Below the pieces are notes generated by a model. It was not told where the DNA came from. It did not search any database and worked only from the letters and a program-made list of their open reading frames with translations. Position numbers and translations under genes: made by a program. Below are positions 7,188-63,129 of a DNA stretch of 64,000 bases, piece by piece (positions within the stretch are counted from its first letter, which is position 1; the number at the start of each line of letters is the position of its first letter). This DNA is from Candidatus Omnitrophota bacterium (GTDB lineage Bacteria; Omnitrophota; Gorgyraeia; Zapsychrales; Fredricksoniimonadaceae). The stretch covers positions 4,479 through 68,478 of the forward strand of contig JAKFXC010000062.1 of the NCBI GenBank assembly GCA_021731625.1, written 5' to 3'.

Positions 7188-7210
7188 AATAGAAGGGTTT
7201 TTTCATAGGC

Positions 7211-7236: not shown

Positions 7237-7256
7237 GTAGAATAAACGGAGGGAAT

Positions 7257-7817: not shown

Positions 7818-7825
7818 AGCATACG

Positions 7826-8404: not shown

Positions 8405-8547
8405 AGGCAAAGAAGCCGTCCTGGCAAGCTTGGCAATTGGCATGGCTGTTGACGTATTATTTGCCGATTTATTTCTTACGCCGGTTGCAGCGCAAGTCCG
8501 CTGCCCGCCGTGGTGTTAACTAACCGACCAATCAGGAGAGGAGGCGT

Positions 8548-8862: not shown

Positions 8863-8883
8863 CCCAAAACTTACGGAGGATGT

Positions 8884-9321
8884 ATGGCAGATTTTATTAA
8901 TCTGATGCTGTTCCTGGTCGCTCTGGGGACAGGGTATTTTTTCGGTTCGCGTATCGAAAAGAAACATTATCAAGAAATAGAGGCGAGGGAACAGGCCCTG
9001 CATCATTTGCCTGCCGTGACCGGTAAGAATTTTTTGGGGGATCGCCCGGTGGCGGCAGCCAACCTGGTCTCGGCCAACGTGGTCATTTGCACCGATTATT
9101 TTAAATTGGTGACCACGGCCTTGCGGAATATTTTGGGAGGCCGGGTCATGGCCTGCGAATCTTTGGTGGACCGGGCCCGACGGGAAGCGATCTTGCGCCT
9201 CAAAGAGCGGTCCGGCGGGGCAGACATCATCATCAACTTACGGGTGGTGTCTTCCCGCATCGGTGAAGGATATTCCGTGGAGGCTTTGGCGTATGGGACA
9301 GCCGTCACCTACAGCAAATGA
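8884..9321 (+). CDS. YbjQ/DUF74-family protein with N-terminal TM anchor
   Basis: TM helix followed by a DUF74 core (GADIIINLRV...YGTAVTY); paralog of the preceding gene. Confidence 0.6.
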   Translation: MADFINLMLFLVALGTGYFFGSRIEKKHYQEIEAREQALHHLPAVTGKNFLGDRPVAAANLVSANVVICTDYFKLVTTALRNILGGRVMACESLVDRARREAILRLKERSGGADIIINLRVVSSRIGEGYSVEALAYGTAVTYSK

Positions 9322-17394: not shown

Positions 17395-17477
17395 TTTTTT
17401 CTTAATGCTGCATTCATTTCGGTTCACATAGAATAAAGGTCCAAGCATTTAAAATTAGTTAATTTAGGAGATGAATT

Positions 17478-17735
17478 ATGGCCGTTTTTAAGTCTATGGA
17501 CGGATCGCCTAAGGCCTTTCGCATCCTGCGTTTTTGTTATGTGGTTTTATCTTTGATTGCCGGATTGGACAAATTTTCTAATTCTTTGGTCAACTGGACC
17601 GCGTATTTGTCGCCGATCGTCAGCAGCAAGATGAATCCGTGTGCATTTATGAAGTTCGTGGGCGTCGTCGAAATCGCCTCCGGACTTTTGGCCATTGTCA
17701 ACCCCCGTAGTGCTGGTTATGTGATTGCCGCCTAG
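17478..17735 (+). CDS. DoxX-family membrane protein, interrupted by in-frame TAG at 17733-17735 (frame stays open to 17861)
   Basis: Two TM helices before the TAG. After it the frame continues LWGIILNLLTIPGYYD...LALANLARDHQHV without another stop for 41 codons, completing a typical ~127-aa DoxX. Confidence 0.5.
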   Translation: MAVFKSMDGSPKAFRILRFCYVVLSLIAGLDKFSNSLVNWTAYLSPIVSSKMNPCAFMKFVGVVEIASGLLAIVNPRSAGYVIAA

Positions 17736-17879
17736 CTTTGGGGGATCATCCTCAACCTTTTGACTATTCCCGGCTACTATGACGTCGCGGCGCGAGACTT
17801 TGCCTTGGCTCTGGGAGTGCTGGCCCTGGCCAATTTGGCCCGGGATCATCAACATGTTTAAATTGACTAAAGGGTCTAC

Positions 17880-19937: not shown

Positions 19938-19938
19938 C

Positions 19939-34685: not shown

Positions 34686-34826
34686 AAAAACCGTTTATCA
34701 TAAAAATACGCTGGATTAAATTTCCATGGCATTCATGGAAAACCCAGCGTATAGTCTTTCAAGCGACGCTTTTATCGGAAGTCAGCAAGGGGTCCACATT
34801 CTATTTTACACTCAGCGCAATTTAAC

Positions 34827-36602
34827 TACGCCATTATCGGCAATTGCACCACCGCTGCCCTGGTTAACGACGATTGTTCCATTGACTGGCTGTGCCTGCC
34901 TTTTTTTGACTCCCCGTCGATTTTTGCCCGTCTCCTGGACCAAAAAATAGGCGGCCATTTCAAGATTTGGGCCAAGGACGTGGTCAGTGTCGAGCAGGCC
35001 TACATCACCCATACTCCCATCTTAAAAACCATTTTCACCACCAAAGACGGCATTTTTGAGGTCCGCGATTACATGCCCCGCTTTGAACTCGCCGAAGGGG
35101 AGGTGTATTGCCCGTCCGAAATCCACCGCATCATCCGTCTGGTCCAGGGGAATCCAAAAATGACCGTTGAGCTTCAACCGCGCCCCAACTATGCCTTAAG
35201 CGAGGCGCACTTTGTCCATTCGAGCGAATATTTAAAAATCACCTCGATGAGCGGAGAGTACAACAGTTTTTATCTGTACTCGAATTTGAATCTCCACGAT
35301 GTCCTGAGTAATAAGGAAATGGAAATCAAGGAGTCATCCTATTTTTTATTGTCCTACCATGAGAAACTGGAAACGATAAACCCCGAAAAGATCCTGGTCG
35401 AGTATGAACGCACCAAGAGCCATTGGATGTACTGGGTGTACCGCACCAAAATTCCGGAGAGATACCGGGAAATGCTCATCCGTTCGATCATCACCTTAAA
35501 ACTCTTGATGTTCCAACGCACCGGCGCGGTGATTGCGGCCCCGACCACGTCTTTGCCTGAAATTATCGGGAAGGACCGCAACTGGGATTACCGTTATTGC
35601 TGGATGCGCGATTCAGCCATGATCATTTATCTATACACGCATTTGGGTCACGCGCGTTCCGCGTCCCGGTACATTTCATTCATTTTAAACCGGATGCTGC
35701 TTAAACATGAGGACATCGCGGTGATGTACGGCATCAACGGCGAACGCCTGCTGGAGGAGAGGGTCCTGGAGCATCTTAGCGGTTACGCAAATTCCCGCCC
35801 GGTGCGCGTGGGCAATGACGCCTATAGGCAAAAACAGAACGATGTGTACGGCGAATTGATTGAAACCATCTATGCGTTTTTTATTGCCAACCCTAAGGAG
35901 GTCATAGGGGTCAATGAGGAAATCTGGACCCTGGTGCGTTCCCTCGTCAATCGCGTGCTGGCCACCTGGCGAGACCCTGACAGCGGCATTTGGGAGAGGC
36001 GGGGGCCCATGCGGCATTTTGTGCATTCCAAACTGATGAATTGGGTGGCCATGGACCGGGCCGCCAAAATCGCGCAATTCGTCGGGAAAACCCGGTATGT
36101 GCCGGGGTATCTAAAAGTGGCGGATGAAATCAAGGACGATATTTTAAAAAATGGATGGAACCAGGACCAGCAAAGTTTTATGATGTATTATGGAGGAGGG
36201 GAGCTGGATGCTTCCAGCCTTTTGATGTTGCACTACGGCTTTTTGGACCGCAAAGACCCCCGCATGGTCAGCACCGTGCAGACCTTGCACCGGGAATTGA
36301 CCAGGGAAGGATTTGTGTTGCGTTACAAAGCTGCGGATGAGTTTGGGGTTCCGGAAAACGCCTTCATTGTGTGCACTTTTTGGATGATCAATGCCCTCTA
36401 TTTAATTGGGCAAGAACAGCAGGCCAGAGTCATGCTAGAAAAAATGATTTCCTTCGCGAACAAATTCGGACTTTATTCCGAAGACATTGAGCCGGCCACC
36501 GGGCGTTTGACCGGAAATTTTCCCCAGGGGTATTCGCATCTGGCCTTCATCCAAACTATTTTTTTGCTGGAAACCCAATACGACTGGAGCGATGCGGCCT
36601 AA
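34827..36602 (+). CDS. Glycoside hydrolase family 15 (glucoamylase/trehalase-type); true start lies upstream of the annotated ATG 34980 and is non-canonical or disrupted
   Basis: The conserved GH15 N-terminus YAIIGNCTTAALVNDDCSIDWLCLPFFDSPSIFARLLD is encoded from 34827, in frame with the 34980 ORF. There is no ATG/GTG/TTG between the upstream stop (34752) and this motif. The catalytic region SLPEIIGKDRNWDYRYCWMRDSA is present. Confidence 0.7.
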   Translation, partial: YAIIGNCTTAALVNDDCSIDWLCLPFFDSPSIFARLLDQKIGGHFKIWAKDVVSVEQAYITHTPILKTIFTTKDGIFEVRDYMPRFELAEGEVYCPSEIHRIIRLVQGNPKMTVELQPRPNYALSEAHFVHSSEYLKITSMSGEYNSFYLYSNLNLHDVLSNKEMEIKESSYFLLSYHEKLETINPEKILVEYERTKSHWMYWVYRTKIPERYREMLIRSIITLKLLMFQRTGAVIAAPTTSLPEIIGKDRNWDYRYCWMRDSAMIIYLYTHLGHARSASRYISFILNRMLLKHEDIAVMYGINGERLLEERVLEHLSGYANSRPVRVGNDAYRQKQNDVYGELIETIYAFFIANPKEVIGVNEEIWTLVRSLVNRVLATWRDPDSGIWERRGPMRHFVHSKLMNWVAMDRAAKIAQFVGKTRYVPGYLKVADEIKDDILKNGWNQDQQSFMMYYGGGELDASSLLMLHYGFLDRKDPRMVSTVQTLHRELTREGFVLRYKAADEFGVPENAFIVCTFWMINALYLIGQEQQARVMLEKMISFANKFGLYSEDIEPATGRLTGNFPQGYSHLAFIQTIFLLETQYDWSDAA

Positions 36603-44884: not shown

Positions 44885-45337
44885 TTGTACAATGGCGCTG
44901 TGAATGGCGCCATTGTCTTTTTTTTAACTGTGTCGATGTCCCTCTTAAGCAGCGGGCCCTTGCAGGCGGACCCCTATTCCGTCAAAAAATACAGTCCGAT
45001 TTCTTTAAAAATTGAATTGCCCAAAGACACCTATGCCGTGGGCGAGCGCATCGACGCTAAAATTGTGGTGAGCAGCACCCGCGGCGGGGGTTATCCCGCC
45101 ACATTCAATATCCGTCTCTACCATGGCAAAGACCTTTTCGATGAATACCGGACCAATTTTCCGCGGATTTTTATGGGCCGCACCGAATATGCCTTAAATG
45201 ATTTTGGCATCCCGCCGTTTAATGATTCTCCGGCGGCGGTGGGGGACTGGAACATCAGCATTTTGCAGCAAGACCTGGATGTGTCGAACGCGGCGTGGGC
45301 GACCATCCATGTGGTGATGCCGGAAAGGGAAGAGTAA
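44885..45337 (+). CDS. Hypothetical exported protein
   Basis: Hydrophobic N-terminus; no recognised domain. Confidence 0.35.
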   Translation: MYNGAVNGAIVFFLTVSMSLLSSGPLQADPYSVKKYSPISLKIELPKDTYAVGERIDAKIVVSSTRGGGYPATFNIRLYHGKDLFDEYRTNFPRIFMGRTEYALNDFGIPPFNDSPAAVGDWNISILQQDLDVSNAAWATIHVVMPEREE

Positions 45338-45855
45338 TGCCAGACCTGGACCTGGAAAAAATTTATCTGCTCTTTATCCAATATGGCATGAACGTGCTCG
45401 CTGCGGTGGTCATTTTTATCATTGGCCGCTGGGCAGCGCACCTTATCTCCAACTTTTTTGGGGCTGTATTGGAACGGACCAAGGTCAACTTGACCTTAGT
45501 CTCCTTTGCCAAGCACTTGGCTTTTTACGGGATCATGACCTTTGTGATCATTGCCGCGCTGAACAAGCTGGGGGTGGAAACCACGTCGTTCATAGCGGTT
45601 TTGGGGGCAGCTTCTTTGGCGGTGGGGCTGGCTCTGCAGGGCTCCTTGTCCAATTTTGCCTCGGGCGTGCTGCTTATCGTGTTTCACCCGTTTAGAGTGG
45701 GCGACCACATCGAGGCCGGCGGGGCGAACGGCCGGGTGGTGGAGATCCAGATTTTTAATACCCTGATGGTGACCGATGACTATAAACGCATCATTGTACC
45801 CAACTCCAAAATTACCGCAGATAAAATTGTCATTTTTCCTCCTGCAGCTGCTTAA
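45337..45855 (+). CDS. Small MscS-family mechanosensitive channel protein (TM3 + beta-domain only, 172 aa)
   Basis: The pore-helix motif AVLGAASLAVGLALQGSLSNFASGVLLIVFHPFRVGD..E is the MscS TM3/beta-domain signature. Confidence 0.7.
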   Translation: MPDLDLEKIYLLFIQYGMNVLAAVVIFIIGRWAAHLISNFFGAVLERTKVNLTLVSFAKHLAFYGIMTFVIIAALNKLGVETTSFIAVLGAASLAVGLALQGSLSNFASGVLLIVFHPFRVGDHIEAGGANGRVVEIQIFNTLMVTDDYKRIIVPNSKITADKIVIFPPAAA

Positions 45856-45860
45856 AAATT

Positions 45861-45890
45861 ACCTGCTGATACCTGCTGATACCTGCTGAT
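45861..45890. repeat. Perfect 3x tandem repeat of 10-bp unit ACCTGCTGAT in the promoter region of the first giant paralog
   Basis: Seen directly: acctgctgat acctgctgat acctgctgat. Confidence 0.9.
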
Positions 45891-45930
45891 AAAATTTGCA
45901 TATCCGATAAAATTATGGCACACTTTCTCT

Positions 45931-48710
45931 ATGTTAGATTATCTATATAAGAAGATGGTCAGCCTGGCGCTAGTCACCGCCTTTGTCGGCTCTTTCGTGT
46001 ATTTACCCCCATCTCAGGCCCACGCGGATGTCCTTTTAGGGCTGCCTGCCCCCGGTACTATGGTCAGCTTAAGCCCCGGCTATGCCACAGCTTTAATCAA
46101 AGGTTTAACCCTTCGTAAAGACAATCCTTTTTTGTTTGATTTCGTGGTGGACACCGGGGATAGCGGCCTCTCCGCTGAGGCTTAAAAATAGAAGGGGACC
46201 GTTTAGTCAAATATTTCTTTGCCTGTTTGACCATTCCTGAAAAAGATCTCTGGGTCAACTTAAGCCCCTATGAAAAAGATCGAATAGTCCCGGAAGCCTT
46301 AGGACAAACCGCTTTGGGCCGGGATCTACTCGCCCAAGACTATTTCCTCAAACAATTAACCGCTTCGCTGATTTATCCAGAGAAAGGCCTGGGCAAAACG
46401 TTTTGGGACCGCGTCTATGCCCAAGCCCAGCAAAAATTTGGGACTTCGCAGATTCCCGTCAATACTTTCAATAAAGTCTGGATCATGGCAGATAAAGCCA
46501 ACGTTTATGAGAGCGGTCAAACCGCCTTTGTGCTCGACGGTCATTTAAAGGTGATGCTCGAAGAGGACTACCTAGCGCTGCAGAAGAATGCCAAACCGAA
46601 ACAAAATGCCGGGACCTCTCAAATTGTCCGCGAAATCCCGGCTTCCATATCAACGGCTCATGCCCAGGAAAGCCGGGATTCCCTGCTGGCTAAAAGTATT
46701 CTGCAGGAAATCATCATCCCGGAGCTTGAGCGGGAAGTGAATACGGGTAAGAATTTTGCCACTTTGCGCCAAATTTATAATTCCCTTATCCTGGCCAGCT
46801 GGTACAAGAAGAATCTCAAGGAAGCATTACTCAATGAAGTTTACACCGATAAGAGCATGGTCAAAGGGGTGGATCTTTCTGACCCTTCTATAAAAGAAAA
46901 GATTTATGAGCAATATCTGAAAGCGTATAAGCAAGGCGTATTTAACTATATTAAGGAGGAACCCCGGGGTGACGGGCAAACTCTTCCTAAGAAGTATTTC
47001 TCCGGTGGATTTGGCGTTGCCCAGAATTTTCAGGCCACGTACCATTCTAATTCTCCTGGCAGTAGACCACTCTTAAATAGAGCCATGCAAAGCCTTTCAA
47101 AGACCTTAGCGGTGGTTGCCGTTGCGTTGGTGATGAATAGTCCGTTAGCTGTTTCGGCCGCTGGCTATGATGCGAAAACAGACACCATTATTGATTTTAG
47201 CGGGCGAGCGCACAAGGCTCCGACTTTGGATGAAATGATAGAGCGAGGTATGGATCCGAGGGATCCTCGGAGTTTCCTGCCCCCAGATTATTTTCGTGAT
47301 CTTTTTGGATTTGAAGAAATGATGCTGGCAGATCCTAAAATAAAGACGGAGGTCCTGAGAAGGATAGCGGAGGCGGTCAACCCGCGTGGGGCAATGTCCG
47401 CCGAAGAACTGGCGTATTTAACCAAATTTTCCAGCGAATTGTTGAGGAGACTGGCAGGATATGATCAGCCTCCTTCGCCGTGGTATACCGCACCAGGAGT
47501 AACTATTCCCAATGATGTCCAAGTCGACGCTCAAAAGGCAAAAAGAACGGCGGGTTTCAAAACAACCCAAGAGTGGGTGGATTATTTGGAAAACGAACTG
47601 CGCTTACCGCGGTTGATGGTTGAAGAATTGAGGGAGCTCAATGAAAAAGGCAAAGATGTTTTTGCTATCATCGATGCGTTGCCCCTGAAAGGATTCTCAC
47701 CACGGGTCGCCGATTTAGCCAGAGGGTTTCTCAAGGCGAGGTTTGCCAACGATCAAAAAACCCAGCTGCAGACGATCATGGACTTGATAAGAATACGAGA
47801 GGAAGCCCTAATTCTACGATCAGATGATCTGCTTCTGCTGGCTGTTTTTAAGGCGGGGTATTTTACCATACTCGAGACGAAGCGATTAGATCAAATAGCT
47901 GGTATTGCCGCAGAGGATGTAAGCCGCTATAACAGTGTGTTTTTTGGTCATTTGCTGGCCCAAATGATGGGGGACTCAGACCAAAAAGCGGAATTAAAGC
48001 AACGCATCAGGCAAATGTATGTGACAGCGTATGCCCGCGCATGGGCAGCCAAGCGAAACACCCTAAACGGACTATTTGCGGACAACGGTATTTACACCCG
48101 ACCCATGTTTAATTCCGCAGGCATGGACAACACCGAATTGCGGCGTATGAATGACATAGCCCAAGGCATTATCACGGCGGCGACGGCCTTAAGACTAGCC
48201 AATGGCAGTCAGGATCGCCTGGAGTCTTTAATCAGAGAATGGGACAAGGCTAAAGGCAATGTCTCATTTGCTTTCTCGAGAATTTTCCATGCCGTAGTCA
48301 TGGGACGACAAGCCGGTGATGTGCAGAATATAGATTTCCCAGGAATATTGGACACATTGAATGCTCTCCCGCCCAATAGAAGACCGGACCGTGACGATCT
48401 TCGAAGATGGGCCGAGCTTGTCCAAAAAAATAGAACTAAGCAAGAGAAGGCAATGGTGGCGCCGGACGAGGCCGATCAAGCCGTAATCACGGAGACCAGC
48501 GATGCCGTATCACCCGGCGGTATCGACTTAAAAACGGCCAACCTGGCCATGACGGTCACCAAAGACGGGAACGGCGGTGTGCAGGTGCTATTTGACCCGT
48601 TACTGCTGGAGGATCTCAGAACTCAAGGTATAAAATCTGCAAACCCCATCATTGTGGATATTAAGCTCATGAGTTCGGCGCAGATTCCCGCTCTCCTTTC
48701 TACACCATGA
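45931..48710 (+). CDS. Giant-protein family paralog 1 (~925 aa if the frameshift is repaired): signal peptide + shared N-domain + unique middle + shared C-terminal module; frameshifted at 46181-46189
   Basis: ORFs 45931..46185 and 46227..48710 are collinear with paralogs 2 and 3: ...DSGLSAEA | LKIEGDRLVKYFFACLTIPEKDLWVNLSPYEK versus LSGEALKQESLKLIKYFLAGLTVPQKDLWVNLSPYEK. One extra nucleotide in the ctt-aaaaa run would restore the frame. Confidence 0.6.
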
Positions 48711-51700
48711 GTCTACGACGCTATATTCTTATTTTGATAATCAGCACAAACTTGATGGCTCCATTGCCGGCACCGCAGGCCTCCGAACTGATTTTGCCGC
48801 AGCCGGGCAGTATGCTCACGCCTACAAAAGCATACAATTCGGTATCGGTCAAAGGCCTAACCATTGACCCTAAAAATCCACTGCGATTTAGTTTTATTGT
48901 TGAACCCGGGGATACGGGATTAAGCGGCCTGCAGCTTAAAGATGAATCCCTCAAGCTTATTAAATATTTTCTTTCGGCATTAACCATACCGGAAGACGAA
49001 ATGTGGGTCAACCTTTCGCCTTACGAAAAAAATCGCATCATTACCGATCAATTCGGATCAACTCAAATGGGCCGGGATTTATTGGCCCAAGACTACATCC
49101 TTAAACAGCTCAGCGCTTCTTTGATCTATCCGGAACATGCTTTAGGAAAGGCGTTTTGGCAAAAAGTATATTCTCAGGTTAAGGATCAATTTAGAACCAC
49201 GCAAATGCCGGTTAATATGTTCAACAAAATTTGGATCGTTCCGGACCAAGCGTCAATCTATGAGCATCAAAACAGCGCGTTTATTGTTAACTCGAGATTA
49301 AAAGTGTTAATGGAACAAGACTATCTGGCCACTCAAAAGAATGATCAGGTTATTTCAAAAGAGCCGCAGGATCGCGGGCTATCTCAAATCATACGCGATA
49401 ATATCGTGCCTGCGATCGAAAAAGAGGTCAACGAAGGGGCCCACTTTGCCAATTTACGGCAAATCTATCAAGCCATGATATTAGCGGTTTGGTATAAAAT
49501 TCGGCTCAAAGACAGCCTCTTGGGAAAGACGTATGTCAATTTGCATAAAGTCAAAGGTGTGGCACTGGCGAACACCAAAGACAATGACATGATTTATCAG
49601 AATTATCTTCGGGCTTTTAAAAAAGGAGTCTTTAACTACATCAAGGAAGAAGAGAATTTGGCAAATCACGAAATGGTTTCCAGAAAATATTTTTCCGGGG
49701 GATTTATGCCGGCTCAATTAGCCCCCATCGTAAAGCAAGGTTTAGTATTCAACCTGCCAGATAGGGCGATCCTAAGCCCAGAGGCTCAAACTGTCACCTG
49801 GGAAGCGGAGGCACTGACCTCGGACCAGGGGATGACTGGAGAATTGCAACAAAGTCTAAAAATGTCGGATCAAGATTTTCAAGTCCTGCTGGGTAGACTG
49901 GCCAAAGATAAGTACATCACCGCAAATTCGGAAGTGGATTTAGAGTTTAAAGGCCTGAAGCCGGCTTACGCCAGGCTTTATCCTGCTCACCATGACCGAA
50001 TTTCAAAGTTACTTTCCGACGGACGTTTAAAACGGCTGGAAAAAATGGAACAAGACCGCAGAGCTTCCATCAAGCAGGAGCTAGGTGATTGGACAGAGAA
50101 AGTCAATGCGGCGGTAAAGCGGAATCAGCAAACAGAAGCAACCAAAAGGGAGGCCTTGGTCCAAAAATGGACACCAACATTTAAAAGATACGGCATTTAT
50201 TATTTTTATTTATTTAAATATATGTCAGAACGTATATTCCACATGCCGTTTAGGTATGAGCTGGAAGATTTTCTCCAAGAATCTGTTGTTGCTTGCCATG
50301 GCGTTGCTGAATTGGGAAAGACAGATGACATTTCGTTTATCATAGCTGCCCAACGGCATTTTCTGCAGTTTTTCGCGGAAGAAGACAGGATACCCTACAA
50401 AACAAAAGTTGGCGTGGTTACAAAGTTGCGGGCTTTGATCGAAAATTATTCTGCCTCCAAGCTTCAAGTGGTGCCAAATAGGTACCTTGTGCCTGCGCTA
50501 CGAGCTGAGTTTCCTAAGCTCCAGCGGTATGTACGCCCCAATGACCCGTTGGAAGGGGAGGTTGAGGCGGGTCATTTCGGATTAATTCCCCTGGAGGAAA
50601 CGTCACGGGAACTATATTTGCAAGCGGCTCTACCTAGAGTCTTGGATCAAACGAAGAAAGCCAATCGTCTTGTCGCTCTGCAATTTGGCCTTGGTGATGA
50701 CATAGAAAAGAGCAATGCATGGATTGCCAAAGAGTTGGGGTATCAGTTCGAAAATAGTGTGCGCTCAAGGTCGTACGAAATCCGGGTGACATTAAGCAAG
50801 AATAAGGCCTTGCGGGACCTTACTGTTTATGATCATCAATGGGTACTGTTCAATGATACTCTAGATTTTTTGCGTTATCAAGAGCGCGCCGCACAGAGTT
50901 CCTCGCCCAAAAAAATTCCTCATGAGCCGGCATTGAATTTTGAAGACGAGCGGCGATTGATGGATTTGGTGCATTTGTGGTTTGCTGCAAGTCAGCTGCG
51001 ATTTCTGCGGGCACTGTATTTAGGAGACAATACCGATAGCTTCAACGAGGGGGTGCAACGAGAAGCTAAACGAAGGATCAATTTATTCCTCACGCTCGGT
51101 GTGTTGTCTGAATTTGGTTTGGGGGAGCAATTAATCCCCACCATTGTCCGCTTGAGCGCCGAAACCCCACTGCAGCGCATGTTTCGTCATGCGGGAGTAG
51201 AGCAATTGTTAAGAATTTCCAATGGGGACATTAATGCCGTGGTTGAATTCGTCATGCAAATGTTTCCCGAGGTATATAAGGAAGAGGATGTTCGGCGTTT
51301 AGCTCGAGGCTATTTTGATTTACCCAAGATTCCGCAAAGTCCCCATGTTGCTCCTCAACAAGTCCTTAGAATTGTTCATAACGTCATTAGTAAAATGGAA
51401 GGTGGCGAGAGTAGACGTAGATATTTGGTCAAAAGACGCTTAGTCCGTGATCTCTACTACCATTCGATCGTAAACAATACATCGCAAGCATTAGAGGGTC
51501 TTAATGCTGCTATCGGCGAAGCCGGCAGCGATCAAGAATGGCAAAATCTTTTAAAAGACACGTATGACTACTATCAACAAGCGACCGCGTTTTATCCACG
51601 CGGCTTTCAGGAGGAAACTGAGGTGGGTCAGGAGCCGATGCTGCCCGCGCAGAGATTTGGTATTTGGGAGGCAGTTTTGTCCCTATCCAATCCTCGTTTG

Positions 51701-53347
51701 GAAAGTGCGGTGCATATGAGTGAAGCCCGTATCGGCAAAACCATTATGGCGATTTTGTCCGTCTTTAATGTGCGCAAGCCGAATAGCAATGACTATGCGG
51801 TGCGGAAGGTCCTCTACACCACCACCAATAGCGCCAAATATGAGGTTTACAATGAGCTTGTGCGGCGTACGAATAAAGAGTTGGATTTGCATGTTATTGT
51901 GGTCGACCGTCAAAACGGCAATCGTGAGCAGCAAGTCGAAGAAGCCATTAAGTTAGCGGAAGATCCAACCAAAAACGTGGTGTTAATCGCCAATTATGAC
52001 GCCGTGAGATTATCACCGGAGGCATTTTCTAAATTTGCTCCTGACGCGCACATTGTTGACGAGGTGGAGTCGCTAAAAAGTGGTGATGCCAAGCGCACTC
52101 CTATCATTTTCGGTATTCCAGCGAAATATCGGGTTGCGGTCAGTGCCCGCGCCGTAGTCAATCGCTCAGAGGATGTCCATGAATTAATTTTGTGGACCCA
52201 GCACCGCGAATTCTTGCCTTGGGGAAGAAAGAAAGAAGACGCATTGCAGGAGCTTAAAGACATGTCCCAAGATCGAGTATTTGAGGTGTTAAGCAGGAAT
52301 CAGAGTCGATGGCGCCGTAGTACCGTTATGCCTGAGGTCAAAGAACCCGTATTTACCAATGAGCCTATTGAATATTCACTGGAGCAGCAACAAAGCATTC
52401 TGAAAATCAGCAGCGTGGATGAATTTGAGGATTGGCAATTAAACGAAGCGCGGGAAGACAAGGGAGACATGAACGATAGTGTTCTGACAAGGATTGATTT
52501 ACTGAGAAGAGCCAGTATTGAGCTGGGCTTGGTTCAAAAAGAAGCCTATTTCGGACAATATATGGACGCGTCCCCAAAAATTCAGCGCCTGGATGCCATC
52601 ATTGACAATGAATTCAAGAGTCAGGGAAAAGTATACGTCGAAGCAGATTTTCCCGAAGCCATTGACCGATTGGTGGCGCGTTATGCCCAAAAATACGGGC
52701 CGCGAGCAGCGGCAGGAATCCATGGTCAAACGCTCGTTAAGGACCGAGTTGATATTATTCGCCGGTTCCGCAGTGACCCGGAATTAAAAATATTGATAGG
52801 GACACCGCATACAACAGCTTCTTCCTTGAATTTGTCTCAGCTGCGAGGTAGTTCTTTCCACAATTCTTTGTTAGTGCGATTAGATTTGCCCGCTCGCAAT
52901 GTCGATGATGGCGATCGTTTGATCGATCCTTGGCAAGATAAGCAAGTCCGGGTGATCTCATTAATAGGCGTCTTTCGAAAGGATGATCTTGCCAAATACA
53001 AGCGATCCATTGATGAGCAGTTCTTCGACTTGCGGTCGGAGAAGCAACGGGTCTTCGAGCATGTTATTGATGGAAAACCCCTCGTTTCGGATGAGGAAAC
53101 GGAAGAAATTAAGGATATGGTTGAGGAGTTTATGGAGCCGTCGGAAATCGACGCTGCCATGATGGAAAAGGGTGGTATCGATTTAAATTCCAAATCCTTG
53201 AAGCTGCACATGAATGGTGATCAACCGGCTGCCTCGTTTAGGGGTACGTTCCTCCCTGCATTTGATGGTCTTTACCCGGTGCTTGTCGATATACAGCCAG
53301 CGAATACTGGTTCGAAATACCCCCCCGGATTATTTGAAAAGCATTAA
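48707..53347 (+). CDS. Giant-protein family paralog 2 (1546 aa, intact): signal peptide + shared N-domain + SNF2-like SF2 ATPase module + shared C-terminal module
   Basis: Shares the N-terminal ~330 aa with the other two paralogs. Internal SNF2 motifs: I SEARIGKTIMAI, II HIVDEVESLKS, III RVAVSARAVVNRSEDVHELILW..FLP; helicase-C-like GIHGQT..ILIGTPHTTASSLNLS and DKQVRVISLIG. Confidence 0.7.
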   Translation: MSLRRYILILIISTNLMAPLPAPQASELILPQPGSMLTPTKAYNSVSVKGLTIDPKNPLRFSFIVEPGDTGLSGLQLKDESLKLIKYFLSALTIPEDEMWVNLSPYEKNRIITDQFGSTQMGRDLLAQDYILKQLSASLIYPEHALGKAFWQKVYSQVKDQFRTTQMPVNMFNKIWIVPDQASIYEHQNSAFIVNSRLKVLMEQDYLATQKNDQVISKEPQDRGLSQIIRDNIVPAIEKEVNEGAHFANLRQIYQAMILAVWYKIRLKDSLLGKTYVNLHKVKGVALANTKDNDMIYQNYLRAFKKGVFNYIKEEENLANHEMVSRKYFSGGFMPAQLAPIVKQGLVFNLPDRAILSPEAQTVTWEAEALTSDQGMTGELQQSLKMSDQDFQVLLGRLAKDKYITANSEVDLEFKGLKPAYARLYPAHHDRISKLLSDGRLKRLEKMEQDRRASIKQELGDWTEKVNAAVKRNQQTEATKREALVQKWTPTFKRYGIYYFYLFKYMSERIFHMPFRYELEDFLQESVVACHGVAELGKTDDISFIIAAQRHFLQFFAEEDRIPYKTKVGVVTKLRALIENYSASKLQVVPNRYLVPALRAEFPKLQRYVRPNDPLEGEVEAGHFGLIPLEETSRELYLQAALPRVLDQTKKANRLVALQFGLGDDIEKSNAWIAKELGYQFENSVRSRSYEIRVTLSKNKALRDLTVYDHQWVLFNDTLDFLRYQERAAQSSSPKKIPHEPALNFEDERRLMDLVHLWFAASQLRFLRALYLGDNTDSFNEGVQREAKRRINLFLTLGVLSEFGLGEQLIPTIVRLSAETPLQRMFRHAGVEQLLRISNGDINAVVEFVMQMFPEVYKEEDVRRLARGYFDLPKIPQSPHVAPQQVLRIVHNVISKMEGGESRRRYLVKRRLVRDLYYHSIVNNTSQALEGLNAAIGEAGSDQEWQNLLKDTYDYYQQATAFYPRGFQEETEVGQEPMLPAQRFGIWEAVLSLSNPRLESAVHMSEARIGKTIMAILSVFNVRKPNSNDYAVRKVLYTTTNSAKYEVYNELVRRTNKELDLHVIVVDRQNGNREQQVEEAIKLAEDPTKNVVLIANYDAVRLSPEAFSKFAPDAHIVDEVESLKSGDAKRTPIIFGIPAKYRVAVSARAVVNRSEDVHELILWTQHREFLPWGRKKEDALQELKDMSQDRVFEVLSRNQSRWRRSTVMPEVKEPVFTNEPIEYSLEQQQSILKISSVDEFEDWQLNEAREDKGDMNDSVLTRIDLLRRASIELGLVQKEAYFGQYMDASPKIQRLDAIIDNEFKSQGKVYVEADFPEAIDRLVARYAQKYGPRAAAGIHGQTLVKDRVDIIRRFRSDPELKILIGTPHTTASSLNLSQLRGSSFHNSLLVRLDLPARNVDDGDRLIDPWQDKQVRVISLIGVFRKDDLAKYKRSIDEQFFDLRSEKQRVFEHVIDGKPLVSDEETEEIKDMVEEFMEPSEIDAAMMEKGGIDLNSKSLKLHMNGDQPAASFRGTFLPAFDGLYPVLVDIQPANTGSKYPPGLFEKH

Positions 53348-53386: not shown

Positions 53387-56300
53387 ATGAACAAATCCAA
53401 AAAAACCGCATACCTTGCTTCCTTTATTATAGTTTCTTTCGTCACCAGTTTTTCGCAAACGCCGGTCTACGCCCAGGAACTGATCCTGCCGTTGCCCGGG
53501 ACCATGGTCACGGCCAGCCCTAAATTTGCGCCAGCCATTATACGCGGTATCCAGTTTAACGCCAAAAACCCCTTCCAATTTGATTTTATCATTGACCGCG
53601 GGGACGACAAGCTCTCCGGGGAGGCTTTGAAACAGGAGTCCTTGAAACTCATCAAGTATTTCCTGGCCGGCTTGACTGTGCCGCAAAAGGACTTGTGGGT
53701 CAACCTCTCGCCGTACGAAAAAGGCCGCATTGTGCCGGACGGCTTTGGCCAAACCGACATGGGCCGCGACCTGTTGGCGCAGGATTACCTTTTGAAACAA
53801 CTGACCGCGTCGCTGGTGTACCCAGAAAAAGAATTAGGCAAAAAGTTTTGGGAAAAAGTCTACGCTAGGGCCAAAGAGCAGTTCGGTTCGGCCCAAATAC
53901 CCGTTAATACCTTTAATAAGGTGTGGATCGTGCCGGACAAGGCCGTGGTGTTGGAGCGTAAAGGCGGCGTGTATGTGTCTCAAAGCCATTTGAAGGTGAT
54001 GCTGGAACAAGACTACCTGGCTTCTCAAAAAAACGTTAAGGTAGCTAGGTCCCAGAAGGGGATTACCACTGCTTCAGACAAGGCCGTGTCTTCCCAAACC
54101 ATCCGCGACATCATTCTCCCCGAGATCGAACAGGAAGTCAATGAAGGCGCCAATTTCGCCGCCTTGCGCCAGGTGTTCAATTCTCTAATTTTGGCCATCT
54201 GGTATAAAAAGAACCTCAAAGATGCGGTGCTCAATAGAGTTTATGCTAACTCCAACAAAATCAACGGCATTGATATTGAAGATAAAGACAGCAAGGAGAA
54301 AATTTACCAGCAGTACCTGCAGGCGTTTAAAAAAGGTGTGTATAGCTATATTAAGGAAGATGCTACGCCTGCGGGTCAGTCAGCCGCCAGGAAATATTTT
54401 TCCGGCGGCGTCAACGTGGAAAACTTGGTTGTGGAAACCGAAAAAGAAAACCAGGCCATGGCCCTCACCATCGCTGAACGGAGCCGCAATGGCGATCTGG
54501 CTCAAATTAGCTGGTTGACCCAGGAGGTTAAAAATCCTAGGTATAGACAAAATTACACACAGGCCCGGTATACCTTCTTAATGAGCACCAAAGGCTATCA
54601 GGAGAGCCTGGGTCGTAAATTTGCACTGCAACTGGATGCTAATCGTGGTGATGGTGTGCTCTCGTATCATCAGCAATTATTGCAAAAAGCATTTAGCCTC
54701 GACCTGAAGAAGCAGAAGGAATTCCTGGCTGCATATAAAGATTATTTTAAATATAACCGCTATGGGATGGAAAATTCATCGATCCCCCGGACCTCGAAAA
54801 ATTGGTGGGTACGGAGCCCGCATTCGGATACTACGAGGGTGAGCATTTCACTTCCTATGCGACCGATGAACTGCTGGCTGTGGATTATCTTAAGACTTTT
54901 GCCCCGGCAGATTTTGACCGCGAACTCAACTGGCTGCTCGTGGAAGTTCCCGCCTTAACGGACGAGCAGGATATGAGTTCCGAAAAGCTGCTGCAATATT
55001 TGGACGAGGCCATTAAGCGCTTGTTCTCCTTTGCAGACCTTAAGCTTCATACGGATGTCCGCTTTCAAGTAGAGCAAGACTTACGCACCTATTTTTATAA
55101 ACAGCTGCTAAATCGCAAAAGTACTTCCCAGCGTATAATCCGGTTGTCCAACACCACGTCGCGCGATGGCCAGCAATCTAACAAAGGCACAAACCTGACA
55201 GGTCTTGACCAGTGGAAACTATTGTCCTGGATTGTAAAATTTGGCAATGTATCCACGATTGAATCCTGGGGCGGGGCTGCAAATCAATCCGCGGTCTTAA
55301 AGACCAAGCGCATTTATCAAGTGCCCGGACAGGAAGAGCCGCTGAAAAATTGGGCCGAGGACCCTTTTTTTAATTTAAGAGAGCAGACAAAATTGTTGGA
55401 AGATAACCTCAAGGAAGCTTTTGGGGAAGACCTGGATCGGTTGGAGGATGATGACCGCGAAAGGATTTTCAATCGGTACAAGCGCGACTTTGACCGCAAA
55501 ATCTTATCCGAATTTGACCTTAATGCGATTCTGAAAAGATACAATCTCAGTGAACAGGTGAAGAATCGCGTCCGTAAAGTCTATGAGATTAAGCAGGAAA
55601 TGCTTTTACGCGGGACTTTTCTGGTTGCCCTGGATCAGTTTCCGGAACCGGTGGTGAAGGAATTTGTGGAGGTGGCATGGCGGAATGGAGTCGATGTTTT
55701 TCGTATTTTTGATGCCATGAACCGGATCAACGAAATCGATGGGCCGCTTAAATACGCCCGGGCCCTGGGAGCTAAAGTCCAGCCTGCCATTCATTACACC
55801 AAAGGTTTTCCTAGGGGGATTCCTAAATATGTGGAGCTAGCCAAGGAATTGGTCAGAATCAGCGGGCACGCCCTGGATAGTTTAGTGATCAAGGATGCCG
55901 CAGGCCAGTTGGAGCCGGAGGAAGCCTATAAACTGGTTAAAGCTTTGCGTCAGGCGGGCATCACTGTTCCGATTCAAATCCATACCCATGATACCAATGG
56001 TAATCGGCAATTGACGTTGTTGGAAGCTATCCGAGCCAACGGGGAAGATTATCCCATTATTGTGGATGTGTCCACCGGTGAGTTGGCCGCACCCTTGGCC
56101 CAGCCCAATGACCGCCATTTTTTAAACATTGTGCAGGGAACAAAGTGGGAGGGGACGCTCATTAAAGATGTGGATTTTGAGCAAATGGAGCAAGCGGAAT
56201 TTTTTATAAAAAGCGACATTAACCTTCACAGTCCCTCTGTGCCAATGACGACCGAAGATCGTTTACGCATCGTGAGAGCGAACATTCCCGGAGGTTTAAA

Positions 56301-57489
56301 AACGAATAATGACAATGATATCAACAATGCCTTACATATGTATGAAAAACTCATCCGTAAAGTTTTCGATATTATTTTTTGGGATCCGCGTGGGAACTTG
56401 ACCGCCAAGGGCCAGGCCTTTAGAGCTGCCTTAGTACGGCTTATGGAGGAAGAAATACCAAGGGTTCGTAAGGACATGGGCAATTTCTCATTGGTCACGC
56501 CCACCAGCGAGTGGGTGGTCAAGCAGTCGCTAAATAATGTTATAGGGTGGATTATTGCAGACCAAACGGTTTTGAACACCAGCAATCCGCAGCAGTGGCA
56601 GCTGTCCATCAAAGAAGATCTCCTCCGTAAAAACCGTAAGAGCCAATATCTGTACAGTGTTGGTTTGGCCGCTCATTTGCATGAAGATCTGCAAAATTAC
56701 CTGGTTGAGTGGACCCAGGACACGGAATTGCAGGATATGTATCCGGATATAAACACAGAGTTGCTGGCTTGGGCGTTTGATATCGAAGGCATTAATATTG
56801 AATTGGATGATCAAAATCGGTTGACTGATAGTCCGCTCGAAAAATTTCAAAATTTAAGAAAATTTTTTGAAAAAAGATTTGTGGATGTGCCTACCATCAA
56901 AGTTTTGCATAAAATGGAAAAATTACGGGAAGGCGGCGATGCGGACGCTCTAGAGAATCTGGAATCTCAAGAATTTTCTTGGGACCTGATCAATAGGATT
57001 TTAAAAAACGAAAAACCCATGAATATCATCAAAAGGCCGGAAGATTATGTCCAGAACTACCAACAGCTGCGGAATAAATATCCTCAGGTCAAGGGTTCAC
57101 CGGAAGATAAAATCTTGGCCAGAGTTTTTCCCAAGGAAGGTCAGTTTTCAAATTTAATTGAAACCAGGAGGATCTTAGAAGAGCAGATCGACCAAGCCCG
57201 CCAAAACTTGCCGGCAGATCATGAGAAGATTCGCAGTTTAGCTGCGGCTTATAAACGTGCCGGCGGTCGCAGCGGAGAGCGGCGTAGCGCAGCGAGTGCC
57301 GCCATGATCGGTGATGACAAAGACGGCGGCATCAATTTGAATCCGGATTTTTATGATCTGCAGATTAATCGCGAAGGTAAAAGAGCTATTGATTTTGCCA
57401 TGCAGGGACCTGCTTTAACTCCGCAGCAAGTCCAAGGCCTCACCCCTGTCATCCTCGGCGTCAAGATCTTGACGCATTTGGAAATTTAA
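53387..57489 (+). CDS. Giant-protein family paralog 3 (~1367 aa if the frameshift is repaired): signal peptide + shared N-domain + pyruvate-carboxylase-type carboxyltransferase TIM-barrel domain + shared C-terminal module; frameshifted in C5 tract 54784-54788
   Basis: ORFs 53387..54958 and 54802..57489. One extra C gives a continuous ...YGMENSSIPPDLEKLVGTEPAFGYYEGEHF. The internal region NGVDVFRIFDAMN...AIHYTKG...LVIKDAAGQLEPEEAYKLVKALRQAGITVPIQIHTHDTNGN...DVSTGELA aligns with the PC/OadA carboxyltransferase domain. Confidence 0.6.
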
Positions 57490-58063: not shown

Positions 58064-58247
58064 CGAAGAGAAAAGAGAGATGTTGGAAGACGCGCGCAGT
58101 CCATCGCGACGAAAAGAGTTTGCGCAGGCAAAGAAAAATCAACCGCTTTCCTGGGGGCAATATTTTGGTTTTCTAAAAGCAATAGGGAATCTTTTTCCGC
58201 AGAAAAAATCGCTTAAAAAAATCGAAGGCAATATGTTTAGACTCTAA
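58053..58247 (+). CDS. Small hypothetical protein overlapping the NTase gene 3' end by 11 nt
   Basis: ORF only; basic and charged; possible partner of the NTase. Confidence 0.25.
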   Translation: MLSDEEKREMLEDARSPSRRKEFAQAKKNQPLSWGQYFGFLKAIGNLFPQKKSLKKIEGNMFRL

Positions 58248-58519
58248 TGGATATGCGGACGCAAGGCTTTTTTGATTTGAGTCCTTGCCTCTTCGGATAG
58301 TTTTTGTTCTGTTGTTGATGAATTGCTATATGCCTGCACTATTTTTTGTAATCCCTTAATTTGTACCTCAAACCGCTGGCACAATCCACACACCAATGCA
58401 TGCAGCCGCATATCCATCCATTCTTTAAACGAAAGACGGCGGTCGAGGGACAGGGACATCAAACGCGTGGCCTCCTGGCAGGAGACCCCGGGAATTTTAT
58501 CTAGGAGTTTATCAATCAT
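58244..58519 (-). CDS. Anti-sigma factor, zf-HC2 (ChrR/RsrA-like) type
   Basis: The H-x3-C-x2-C motif (MRLHALVCGLCQRF) and an ATGA start/stop overlap with the upstream ECF sigma gene. The ORF track extends it to 58585. Confidence 0.6.
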   Translation of the reverse strand: MIDKLLDKIPGVSCQEATRLMSLSLDRRLSFKEWMDMRLHALVCGLCQRFEVQIKGLQKIVQAYSNSSTTEQKLSEEARTQIKKALRPHIH

Positions 58520-59031
58520 TGTTTGAACCAGTTCTGTTCCAGGCATTGCCGCAGCTGCAAGCGGGCCCGATAGAGCAGTACCCATAGATTAGTCGAAGAT
58601 ACCCCTAAAATCTTACAAATTTCCTCGCTTTGCATCGCTTCCAGTTTGCGCAGACGGAAGGCTTGCGCAGCTTTGTCCGGCAAACGCCCCATGCAGTCCT
58701 GGAACAGCTGCCAAAACTCCTTGTTTTCCAGCAAGGCGGCGGGGTTAAATTGCCAATTGCCGGGGGCTTTGGCCAAATGGCCATAATCGGCATTGTCAAA
58801 AAATTGCTCCACGTGCATGTCAGCTTCGACCAGTTGCGAGGCCGGCACTTCCCTATATGTAAGACGCAGATAATCTGCGATTTTATGTTTGAGGATGCCG
58901 ATCAACCAAGTTTGTTCGCTGGATTTACCTTGGAAATGGGCACGGTTCTGCAAAGCAGAAAGCAAGGTTTCCTGTACCAGGTTTTGGGCTTGGTCTGGCT
59001 GGGCGATCGATTTGAGGGCGTAGGCATACAA
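58516..59031 (-). CDS. ECF-subfamily RNA polymerase sigma-70 factor (TTG start)
   Basis: Region 2 (LVQETLLSALQNRAHFQGKSSEQTWLIGILKHKIADYLR) and region 4 HTH (SEEICKILGVSSTNLWVLLYRARLQLRQCL). Confidence 0.8.
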   Translation of the reverse strand: MYAYALKSIAQPDQAQNLVQETLLSALQNRAHFQGKSSEQTWLIGILKHKIADYLRLTYREVPASQLVEADMHVEQFFDNADYGHLAKAPGNWQFNPAALLENKEFWQLFQDCMGRLPDKAAQAFRLRKLEAMQSEEICKILGVSSTNLWVLLYRARLQLRQCLEQNWFKQ

Positions 59032-59199
59032 GCTCGCCGTATAAATCGACCCAATCCTCGGGATCTGAAGAAGATGCGGAAGACATCAGCCCTCATTCAA
59101 CCTGAGACGGACAAAAAAGGCAAGAATTTTGTAAGGATTTGCTGGTATAATCGACTAATACGCAAAGGCAAAGAAAATCAGGAAAGGCCGGTCCCATTG

Positions 59200-61419: not shown

Positions 61420-63129
61420 GTGGACATCCAGGATTTCAGCCGCCGCATGATCGAGCTCTTGCCCAAATGCATCCGCGGCTTTCAGGGCTACGAAAGCAAT
61501 TATCTCTCCCGAGGTCAGATCAGCTTGCCGCAGTTTTGGGCCTTGGAATACCTCTCCCGGCACGGCCACTGCCTGATGAGTGAATTGGCCGTTTTTTTGG
61601 GGATCTCCCGGCCGGCTGCCACCGGCCTCATCAACCGCCTGATCGCCCAAAAATTGGTGGACCGCCGCAGCGAACAGAAAGACCGCCGCACCGTGCGGGT
61701 CAGCATTTCCGCCAAGGGCAAAAAGATTGTTACCCACGTTTGGCAGCAAAAACGCCGCGGCATGGAAACCGTCTTTGCCAAAATTTCGGCTGCTGAGCGT
61801 AAACAGTATCTGGATATCTTAGAGAAGGTGGTCAATAATTTCAGCCCTAAAATACTGATCGGGGCGGTGGTGTTGGGGGCGGCTTTTGTGGGTGCGGATT
61901 GCGGCCAAGCACAGGAGGCCCCCCTAGCCAATTTGACCTTGCGGCAGGCTTACGAACTTGCACTCAAGCGCAGTGAAACCCTCGCCATACAAAAGCAGGT
62001 GATTGAAGAGGCGCATGGCCGGCTCAGCCAAACCATCAGCCGGTCTTTGCCGCAGGTGTCTTTTACCGACACGGAGAAATTTCAAGACCGCTTTTCCAGC
62101 TCATCCTCCTCAGAAAATAGTTCCCGGGTGTATGTGCCGACCCGGACGTTCACCTTTAGCCAACCTTTGTTTTCCGGTTTTCGAGAATTTGCCGCCATCG
62201 CTGCCAACAAAGCTGAGCGTAAACAGCGCGAACAGGAGTTGGAACGGGCTAAACAATTGCTGTTTACCGATGTTTCCGACGCCTTTTATTTGTCCATCGG
62301 CTATCAGCAGCAATTGGGCATTCTGCTCGAAGTCAATAAAGTCTTGCAGGGACGGTCCGACGAATTGAGCCAGCGGCTGTCCATTGGCCGGTCGCGCCCC
62401 AGCGAAGTGGCCAACACCGAATCCAAATTTTACCAAAACGAGGCGGACATTGAATCCTTGCGCGGCCAGCAGGATTCTTCTTTTGAACTGATGGAGTTCT
62501 TGGTCGGCCATAAAATTGAGTCCTTGGCAGAGACAAAGGTCCTGCCGGCGGGCCTTCCGACCCGGGAGGAATATTTGGCCAGGGTAGCCCAGAGGGCGGA
62601 TGTGCTGGCGGCAAAGCATGCCAGCGTGGCCGCAGAAAAAAACATCACGGTGCAAAGGGCAGGGTATTTTCCATCCGTCAATGTCACCGGCAATTCGTAC
62701 TTGAAGCGGGTGGGCCCGATAGGTGATTCGGATTGGGATGTGACCGTCAATATTTCGGTGCCCCTTTTTAATGCCAAAGAGACAGCCGGGGCCGTGACCA
62801 TTGCCAGGGCCCAGGCCGAGCAGGCTAAATTGCGCCTTAGCCAGGCCCAGCGTCAGGCCGATTTGGACATCAAAAATGCATACACTAATCTGTCGGCAGG
62901 CATGAAGCGGATGGAGGCATATCACAAAGCCGTTCAAGCCGCCGAGAAGAATTATGCGCTGCAGTCTGGTGATTACACCAAAAGTCTGGTCAACAACCTG
63001 GACGTGCTGCAGGCCTTGGAAGATCTGCAAAGCGTGCGCGGGGATTACATCTCGGTTAAAAATGAAACCCAACGGGCTTATTGGTCCCTCAAGGTAGCGG
63101 CAGGAGATATTTCCGATGACACTCTCTGA
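61420..63129 (+). CDS. MarR-family transcriptional regulator N-terminal domain fused in frame (no stop) to a TolC-like outer-membrane efflux protein
   Basis: Residues 1-145 form a MarR wHTH (MSELAVFLGISRPAATGLINRLIAQKLVDRRSEQKDRRTVRVSISAKGKKIV). A signal-peptide-like KILIGAVVLGAAFVGADCGQAQ segment follows, then OEP repeats (LTLRQAYELALKRSETL...), with no intervening stop codon. Confidence 0.6.
   Translation: MDIQDFSRRMIELLPKCIRGFQGYESNYLSRGQISLPQFWALEYLSRHGHCLMSELAVFLGISRPAATGLINRLIAQKLVDRRSEQKDRRTVRVSISAKGKKIVTHVWQQKRRGMETVFAKISAAERKQYLDILEKVVNNFSPKILIGAVVLGAAFVGADCGQAQEAPLANLTLRQAYELALKRSETLAIQKQVIEEAHGRLSQTISRSLPQVSFTDTEKFQDRFSSSSSSENSSRVYVPTRTFTFSQPLFSGFREFAAIAANKAERKQREQELERAKQLLFTDVSDAFYLSIGYQQQLGILLEVNKVLQGRSDELSQRLSIGRSRPSEVANTESKFYQNEADIESLRGQQDSSFELMEFLVGHKIESLAETKVLPAGLPTREEYLARVAQRADVLAAKHASVAAEKNITVQRAGYFPSVNVTGNSYLKRVGPIGDSDWDVTVNISVPLFNAKETAGAVTIARAQAEQAKLRLSQAQRQADLDIKNAYTNLSAGMKRMEAYHKAVQAAEKNYALQSGDYTKSLVNNLDVLQALEDLQSVRGDYISVKNETQRAYWSLKVAAGDISDDTL

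Follow-up and report, generated by a model that had tools for sequence, protein, structure and literature searches.

A one-base disruption splits one gene into two overlapping ORFs

The open reading frames (ORFs) at 53387..54958 (ORF A, 523 aa) and 54802..57489 (ORF B, 895 aa) are a single gene that is split by a -1-type frameshift, that is, by one missing base. Both are on the forward strand of the window, by which we mean the whole stretch of 64,000 nucleotides from a Candidatus Omnitrophota bacterium that was analyzed here. ORF B lies in the -1 frame relative to ORF A, and the overlap of the two in different frames, reported in a sequence-only reading of this DNA, is borne out. So is the CCCCC tract (C5) at 54784-54788, in which that reading had placed the break: the insertion of one C after position 54788 gives an ORF of 1367 aa that has no internal stop and reads ...GMENSSIPPDLEKLVGTEPAFGYYEGEHF... 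The gene is the third of three tandem paralogs, and a disruption of this kind, by one base in one gene, is nothing out of the ordinary. The data establish the direction of the shift, its approximate place, and the absence of features of a switch or of recoding. The coordinates of the individual features are listed in Table 1.

Table 1. Features of the three paralogs and of the region around the frame change in paralog 3
Feature	Position	Strand	Description and basis
Paralog 1	45955..48710	+	918 aa after addition of one base; cargo of unknown type; tail HMM E=1.1e-09
Paralog 2	48707..53347	+	Intact, 1546 aa; SNF2-related and Helicase_C cargo; divergent tail
Paralog 3, repaired	53387..57489	+	1367 aa after addition of one base; signal-peptide-like N terminus, N-domain, carboxyltransferase-like cargo, GGINL tail
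ORF A as sequenced	53387..54958	+	N-domain, ~120 aa of cargo, then 57 out-of-frame residues; identical to P0124
ORF B frame	54757..57489	+	Open from 54757; first listed start TTG 54802; rest of cargo and C-terminal tail
Conserved N-domain (LWVNLSPYEK... motif)	53474..54421	+	Omnitrophota-specific module; tblastn self-hit coordinates
Likeliest frame-change interval	54757..54805	+	Stop at 54754-56, codon-usage switch score, homolog conservation
Short runs in this interval	GGG 54764-66; A4 54771-74; C5 54784-88; A5 54797-801	+	Homopolymer listing
Cargo, carboxyltransferase-related (pyruvate carboxylase subunit B/oxaloacetate decarboxylase alpha)	55552..56547	+	P0132 match, Pfam
C-terminal GGINL tail module	57316..57480	+	Tail HMM; alignment of the three paralog tails

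ORF A and ORF B are one gene because the repaired frame is uninterrupted, because homologs span the junction, and because the N-domain and the tail are found on the same ORF in 59 of 64 complete relatives. (i) The coding score stays high downstream of the break, over 895 codons (2.7 kb) that contain no stop. The gene carries one lesion only, and the several lesions or the lost coding signal that would mark a decayed pseudogene are not seen. (ii) P0001, a protein of 2291 aa from the metagenome-assembled genome (MAG) GCA_964364715.1, can be aligned without interruption to residues 410-1265 of the repaired protein; the alignment begins about 60 residues before the break and extends far past it. 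A search with the cargo only revealed the same continuity for P0122 (38% identity) and P0123 (34%), and both P0001 and P0122, which are 36-38% identical to the repaired protein, are single ORFs across the junction. (iii) The N-domain of paralog 3 is located in ORF A and its tail in ORF B (residues 854-908 of the ORF B frame; tail HMM, E=1.4e-10), so that the two reside on one polypeptide only after the one-base repair.

The gene calls of the source record itself, which were among the matches of the cargo-only search, treat the locus as two proteins, namely, P0124, which equals ORF A, and P0121, which equals ORF B from the ATG of MSSEKLL (~54973). As the sequence is written, the cargo frame would be lost after residue ~467, which separates the cargo and the tail from the export/N-domain part. 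In annotations, P0124 and P0121 are best merged or marked as a single disrupted gene, and the C5 tract should not enter records as a phase-variation site.

Paralog 3 belongs to a large family of Omnitrophota proteins

The family has a common layout, consisting of a signal-peptide-like start, an N-domain of ~340 aa, a variable cargo, and a GGIDL tail of ~65 aa. The repaired paralog 3 conforms to it, with a hydrophobic, signal-like N terminus that is followed by an N-domain of ~340 aa containing the WVNLSPYE and NTFNKVWI motifs and showing 51-63% identity to hundreds of homologs. The N terminus resembles a Sec signal peptide in its KSKK sequence, its hydrophobic stretch of 15 residues, and the VYAQ-E that follows. 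Among 8000 candidates scored, more than 4690 were homologs of the repaired protein, and all those with a source name were labeled Candidatus Omnitrophota/Omnitrophica. These homologs share only the first ~340 residues (50-63% identity), which are followed by very different Pfam domains, including PGK, TIM, glucose-6-phosphate isomerase, enolase, methyltransferases, HATPase, and others. Genomes carry many members of this greatly expanded family, and tandem arrays occur.

The layout was surveyed in 81 loci, i.e., 80 related loci from Omnitrophota MAGs and L001, the locus of P0001. A tail HMM was built from 32 family tails, and every ORF in the 81 loci was scored with it. The loci contained 92 copies of the N-domain, 64 of which are in ORFs that close inside the locus, and the tail ends the same ORF in 59 of these 64 cases. 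The five tail-less relatives comprise L041, which is interrupted by a scaffold gap; L037, which ends near a contig end; L014 and L040, which contain an in-frame TAA and are possible nonsense-interrupted members; and L064, which has two frame breaks and is the only unambiguous multi-frameshift case. The latter is from an MFD MAG with contig_-style names, which suggest a long-read assembly. No clean frameshift was seen among the relatives in short-read-style contigs. Judged by the five tail-less relatives, natural frameshifts thus seem to be rare in this family.

Conserved ends that flank a variable middle are also typical of polymorphic toxins and of the C-terminal-domain substrates of the type IX secretion system (T9SS). 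The likeness, which extends to the signal-peptide-like start and the frequent tandem arrays, is one of layout only: the cargoes of the Omnitrophota family are housekeeping-type enzymes and not toxins, and the family lacks a sequence or fold match to a trafficking domain. In particular, the N-domain had no sequence match in Pfam, NCBIfam, or PDB and no fold match to a known trafficking domain. An export or delivery role of the family is a guess that draws on this layout only. In our literature searches, which took in Omnitrophota genome papers, neither the family nor frameshifts in its members were described, which is not proof that no description exists. This large, uncharacterized family is a more interesting lead than the frameshift itself: thousands of Omnitrophota proteins carry the N-domain and the GGIDL tail around unrelated, mostly cytoplasm-type enzymes. 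If the two end modules were an export or delivery device, this would bear on how ultra-small, probably host-dependent bacteria make contact with other cells.

The missing base maps to a short interval with several candidate runs

The downstream frame is open from 54757, following a TAA at 54754-56, and the upstream frame is open to 54958. Since both frames are open over this 202-nt stretch, any +1-nt change within it fuses the two ORFs. A codon-usage switch-point scan gave a flat maximum over 54757..~54801 and a steady fall after ~54805, and conservation among the homologs is weak up to ...AAYKDY and clear again from ...HFTSYATDEL. The likeliest interval contains the four short runs given in Table 1. 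Plausible peptides result from a repair at C5 (...SSIPPDLEKLVG...), at A5 (...SSIPRTSKKLVG...), and at A4 (...GMEKFIDPPDLEK...). With identities of 34-38% and little conservation at the junction, the closest cargo relatives narrow the site but permit no choice among C5, A5, and A4. The assignment of the shift to C5 is consequently unproven, because stops and codon usage allow the whole of 54757..~54805, in which A5, A4, and GGG are also located; C5 is one candidate site among four short runs.

The proximity of a homopolymer carries little information by itself. The window contains 476 homopolymers of at least 5 nt, which corresponds to one per ~134 nt, and 100 of them are G/C runs of at least 5 nt. 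The chance of finding at least one such homopolymer is ~0.3 in the best interval of ~49 nt and ~0.8 in the permissive stretch of 202 nt. A homopolymer beside a frameshift is thus expected by chance, given runs of this length every ~134 nt.

A second paralog is disrupted, and the remainder of the window is largely intact

The N-domain (51-57% identity) and the C-terminal tail of ~65 aa (GGIDL/GGINL) are common to the three tandem genes, whose middle parts are unrelated. In paralog 1, the frame of the N terminus, which starts at ATG 45955, differs from that of the long ORF at 46227..48710. Flanking stops confine the shift to 46179-46185 (GGCTTAA), and an alignment of the N-domains (SAEALKIEGDRLVKYF versus SGEALKQESLKLIKYF) places it at GAG GCT (T)TA AAA. 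The base is missing either from TT/TTT or from the third position of the Ala codon; the A5 run that adjoins the break cannot be the repair site, because an in-frame TAA would remain. Paralog 1 also has a single lesion, with an intact ORF of ~2.5 kb after the break. Paralogs 1 and 3 need the same +1-nt correction, and only one of the two sites is plausibly at a run of at least 5 nt. The statement that two of three paralogs are broken at homopolymers hence stands as far as the number of broken genes is concerned, but the break in paralog 1 is at TT/TTT and not at a long homopolymer.

In the other ~50 genes of the window, inspection of every suspicious overlap between ORFs on the same strand, and of Pfam coverage for nearly all of these genes, revealed no other clear frameshift despite the abundance of homopolymers. 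A systematic homopolymer error, one of two explanations offered earlier, is unsupported in that form, as the Pfam coverage of these ~50 genes is complete. The overlapping ORF pairs 2362/2817, 3694/4505, and 9318/10075, a trio at 12.3-13.5 kb, and the overlaps at 44.0-45.9 kb were considered as frameshifts and rejected, since in each case the genes are distinct and their Pfam domains complete.

There is no gross homopolymer problem in the window, yet the sequence is not flawless. Start-codon anomalies were observed in two genes only, encoding a GH15 protein and an ECF sigma factor. The GH15 gene (34755..36602) has a conserved in-frame N terminus but no ATG, GTG, or TTG before 34980. It was considered as a third one-base deletion and rejected: its N terminus is in frame and a canonical start is simply absent. 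No frameshift needs to be invoked, because the closest GH15 homologs begin 1-7 residues before the NY.IIGN motif. A non-canonical start at ATT 34806, which is preceded by AAGGGG, is possible, as is a lost start codon. In the ECF sigma gene (58516..59031, minus strand), the TTG start truncates region 2, and an ATG is present just upstream, one base out of frame. Three reconstructions of this gene as a possible third frameshift have Pfam scores (38.8-39.9 bits) close to that of the TTG start (37.0 bits). The MscS-like gene next to the array (45295..45855) is truncated, with no C-terminal domain, and a 10-nt tandem repeat in 3.2 copies comes after it.

Origin of the disruption

We tentatively favor an unprogrammed one-base loss that is a consensus error of the assembly, an account that in our judgment falls a little short of an even chance. 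The sequence would then lack one base somewhere in 54757..~54805, and the loss would most likely exist only in the assembled consensus, owing to low coverage, mixed strains, or long-read indel error. This account is favored by the single lesion per gene and the 2.5-2.7 kb of intact ORF after each break, by the identical +1-nt correction needed by paralogs 1 and 3, by the odd starts of the GH15 and ECF sigma genes, and by the distribution of frameshifts among the relatives, where short-read-style contigs showed no clean case and the one unambiguous multi-frameshift case (L064) is in a presumed long-read MAG. It is weakened by the clean record of the ~50 remaining genes: with uniform indels, the probability that both lesions fall into the family's ~20% of the coding DNA is only ~0.04. 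The truncated MscS-like neighbor suggests a real rearrangement at the locus, and neither contig scans nor exact-protein look-ups identified a near-identical second assembly. The main competitor, which we consider possible although somewhat doubtful, is that real and recent one-base deletions, in the organism or in its dominant strain, inactivated paralogs 3 and 1, and that the family turns over fast and its members are probably individually dispensable. The same clustering of both lesions in the three tandem genes (chance ~0.04) argues for it, as do the truncated MscS-like gene and the 3.2-copy repeat, which are consistent with a locus in flux, the strong expansion of the family into many copies and tandem arrays, and the possible nonsense-interrupted members L014 and L040. 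However, there is no decay beyond one lesion per gene over 2.5-2.7 kb, and clean frameshifts are essentially absent from the 64 complete relatives, save for a scaffold gap and one MFD MAG; at such a background rate, two independent -1-nt lesions in neighboring genes are unlikely. Frameshifted genes or pseudogenes and consensus indels in MAGs have in common with paralog 3 the one-base split, the two overlapping ORFs, and the otherwise intact product. Compared to an ordinary MAG frameshift, nothing is distinctive here except that two of three tandem family members are hit and the rest of the window is clean. The importance of the frameshift is mainly one of annotation, and no genetic switch is indicated.

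The readings that assign a function to the break are far less probable. According to the first of these, reversible changes in the length of C5 would act as an on/off switch for the full-length exported protein, in the manner of the contingency loci with poly-G/C tracts of Neisseria, Haemophilus, Campylobacter, and Helicobacter. What paralog 3 shares with such loci is a frameshift that adjoins or falls inside a homopolymer, here near a poly-C run, and membership in a multigene family whose products have an export signal; in addition, two of the three tandem members of this variable family with its signal-peptide-like start are out of frame. The phase-variation tracts in these genera are ~7-8 nt long or more. 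C5 is far shorter than the tracts known for frequent switching, the data do not single out C5 over A5, A4, and GGG as the site, the second break (at TT/TTT in paralog 1) is off any long run, and the relatives are nearly always in frame. Tracts are not enriched in the family either: the three genes have 11 G/C runs of at least 5 nt in 11.5 kb (0.96/kb), a lower density than that of the window (100 in 64 kb, 1.56/kb). Hence, neither a hypermutable tract of at least ~7-8 nt at the break nor an enrichment of tracts was found. The longest G/C tract in the three genes, C7 at 53320-26, is inside the last 9 codons of paralog 2 and cannot switch the protein off. Variable-gap exact-pattern scans of genome and metagenome contigs detected no second copy with another C count, and no second assembly of this DNA was retrieved when P0124, P0121, paralog 2, and the product of the downstream gene were looked up as exact proteins. 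We therefore regard slipped-strand phase variation, the other explanation offered by the sequence-only reading, as unsupported and improbable, primarily because of the short C5, the lack of G/C-run enrichment, and the position of the paralog 1 break. The description of the family as antigenically exposed is likewise not established: it relies just on a signal-peptide-like N terminus, and the cargo enzymes, such as an SNF2 helicase and a carboxyltransferase, normally work in the cytoplasm. A related speculation, which we judge to be slightly less likely still, is that the cell really has the breaks of paralogs 1 and 3 and makes use of them, such that reversible slippage or low-level recoding decides between a full, export-competent protein and an uncoupled cargo enzyme. 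If this were true, the family would be a switchable cargo-delivery repertoire (SNF2 helicases, carboxyltransferases, glycolytic enzymes, and others) of a host-dependent nanobacterium.

Programmed -1 ribosomal frameshifting or transcriptional slippage, by which a short N-domain product and the full-length protein would both be made, is very improbable. The repaired protein is exactly what would result if tRNA-Pro slipped by -1 on C_CCC, and the downstream ORF is fully intact; the -1 direction and a formally possible P-site slip on C_CCC are also what the locus has in common with the programmed sites of dnaX (A AAA AAG), IS elements, and phage tail-chaperone genes. Unlike these, it lacks both an X XXY YYZ heptamer and a pseudoknot or hairpin, and it is not conserved. 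The zero-frame context is AUC CCC CGG, in which C CCC CGG does not form such a heptamer and permits a single-tRNA slip only. The A-site codon CGG is common (16 per 1000), and a "hungry codon" -1 slip before CGG was rejected on the ground that only one other Arg codon is used more often. The 112 nt at 54789-54900 fold no better than shuffled sequences (z = +0.59), and no Rfam element was found in the region of 45.5-58.5 kb. The feature is conserved neither in P0001 and P0122 nor in the family generally, in which 59 of the 64 complete members are single ORFs, and the site in paralog 1 has no motif in common with that of paralog 3. As to the polymerase, a C5 tract is too short for efficient slippage. 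Least probable of all, and close to refuted, is the reading that the public gene calls embody with P0124 and P0121, namely, two separate genes, one for a protein with the N-domain only and one for a carboxyltransferase-like protein that is translated independently. The homology to P0001 already starts within ORF A, ~60 residues ahead of the break, and extends into ORF B; the tail is otherwise on the same polypeptide as the N-domain; and ORF B has no convincing start, since TTG 54802 is inside the overlap and the ATG at ~54973 has an AGGA just 1 nt upstream.

The cargo of paralog 3 is related to carboxyltransferases

The cargo that the break separates from the N-domain resembles a carboxyltransferase TIM barrel with a PYC_OADA domain. 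It aligns with the pyruvate carboxylase subunit B P0132 over 335 aa (33% identity, E=2e-42). In the repaired protein, the Pfam family PYC_OADA was detected with 31.6 bits (cutoff 27), and HMGL-like scored 20.2 bits, which is below its cutoff of 29. Unlike canonical carboxyltransferases, the domain is situated between the Omnitrophota N-domain and the tail. The biotinyl carrier domain PF00364 (Biotin_lipoyl), which all canonical matches carry, was not detected by Pfam in the 1367-aa protein. The domain retains the motifs IKDxAG and HxH. The first motif of carboxyltransferases is expected to be D-T-T-L-R-D-x-x-Q-S, and in paralog 3 it reads NTTSRDGQQS.

Integrity of family genes in other loci and of genes in the window

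The features considered here are listed in the table. Among the related loci from other Omnitrophota metagenome-assembled genomes (MAGs), family genes were found to be disrupted in L014, L040, and L064; the source of L064, an MFD MAG with contig_-style names, is probably a long-read assembly. An apparent break in a fourth locus, L041 (2803-2855), corresponds to an N10 scaffold gap.

Features considered with regard to gene integrity (L014, L040, and L064 numbered within their own loci, all others within the window)
Feature	Position	Strand	Remark
Glycogen/trehalose-type gene run	13542-22713	+	
GH15/trehalase-like gene	34755..36602	+	start region 34755-34980
MscS-like gene and tandem repeat	45295-45891		directly 5' of paralog 1
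ECF sigma gene	region 58516-59085	minus	adjoins putative anti-sigma gene 58244..58585
MarR-type HTH and TolC-like outer-membrane efflux protein (OEP)	61420-63129		one ORF, 569 aa
L014 family gene	881-4010		TAA after 532 aa; frame beyond stays open >500 aa
L040 family gene	1693-4525		TAA after 404 aa; frame beyond stays open >500 aa
L064 family gene	5949-10056		two frame breaks within a single gene

The glycogen/trehalose-type genes, used only as a gene-integrity control, encode three alpha-amylase-family proteins with TreZ-, isoamylase/GlgX-, and TreY-like sizes as well as a GDE_N/GDE_C debranching enzyme, and domain coverage was complete in all of them. The longest G/C homopolymer of the window, a C7 tract (53320-53326), is located in paralog 2, which is intact, inside its final 9 codons. 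The tail of this paralog is divergent and was not matched by the tail HMM; it can be aligned by eye to the family consensus.

Carboxyltransferase-like cargo of paralog 3

Canonical carboxyltransferase enzymes carry the first motif D-T-T-L-R-D-x-x-Q-S. The corresponding motif in paralog 3 is SNTTSRDGQQSN (window ~55140-55180; residues ~585-598 of the fused protein). In this cargo and in its homologue P0122, but not in the homologue P0001, the metal-binding Asp appears to be replaced by Asn, and the paralog 3 cargo may therefore be altered in catalysis. This cargo contains no biotin carrier domain.

Irregular gene starts, a possible fusion, and a truncated gene

In the GH15/trehalase-like gene, the conserved N terminus FNYAIIGNC... 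is in frame, and homologues start 1 to 7 residues ahead of this motif. The first GTG is preceded by 225 nt that lack any ATG, GTG, or TTG; the gene probably either starts at ATT 34806, which is preceded by AAGGGG at a distance of ~10 nt, or has lost its start codon. The sole canonical start of the ECF sigma gene is a TTG that cuts sigma region 2 short. The in-frame stretch upstream of it, CLPHLLQIPRIGSIYTAS, lacks a start codon, and an ATG (MSSASSSDPEDW...) on the 5' side is off frame by one base; the gene may contain a one-base insertion close to its 5' end. The Pfam scores of three reconstructions (38.8-39.9 bits) differed little from that of the TTG start (37.0 bits).

The MarR/OEP ORF comprises a MarR-type HTH (residues 34-92), the OEP (residues 385-557), and a signal-peptide-like stretch between them, with no visible frame break; the ORF represents an unusual fusion or else arose through the loss of a stop and a start. 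The MscS-like protein (186 aa) stops just past the beta-domain and lacks the C-terminal domain. Downstream of the gene, TACCTGCTGA is repeated in tandem (3.2 copies, 45860-45891), and the end of the gene together with this repeat may mark the boundary of a rearrangement or insertion.
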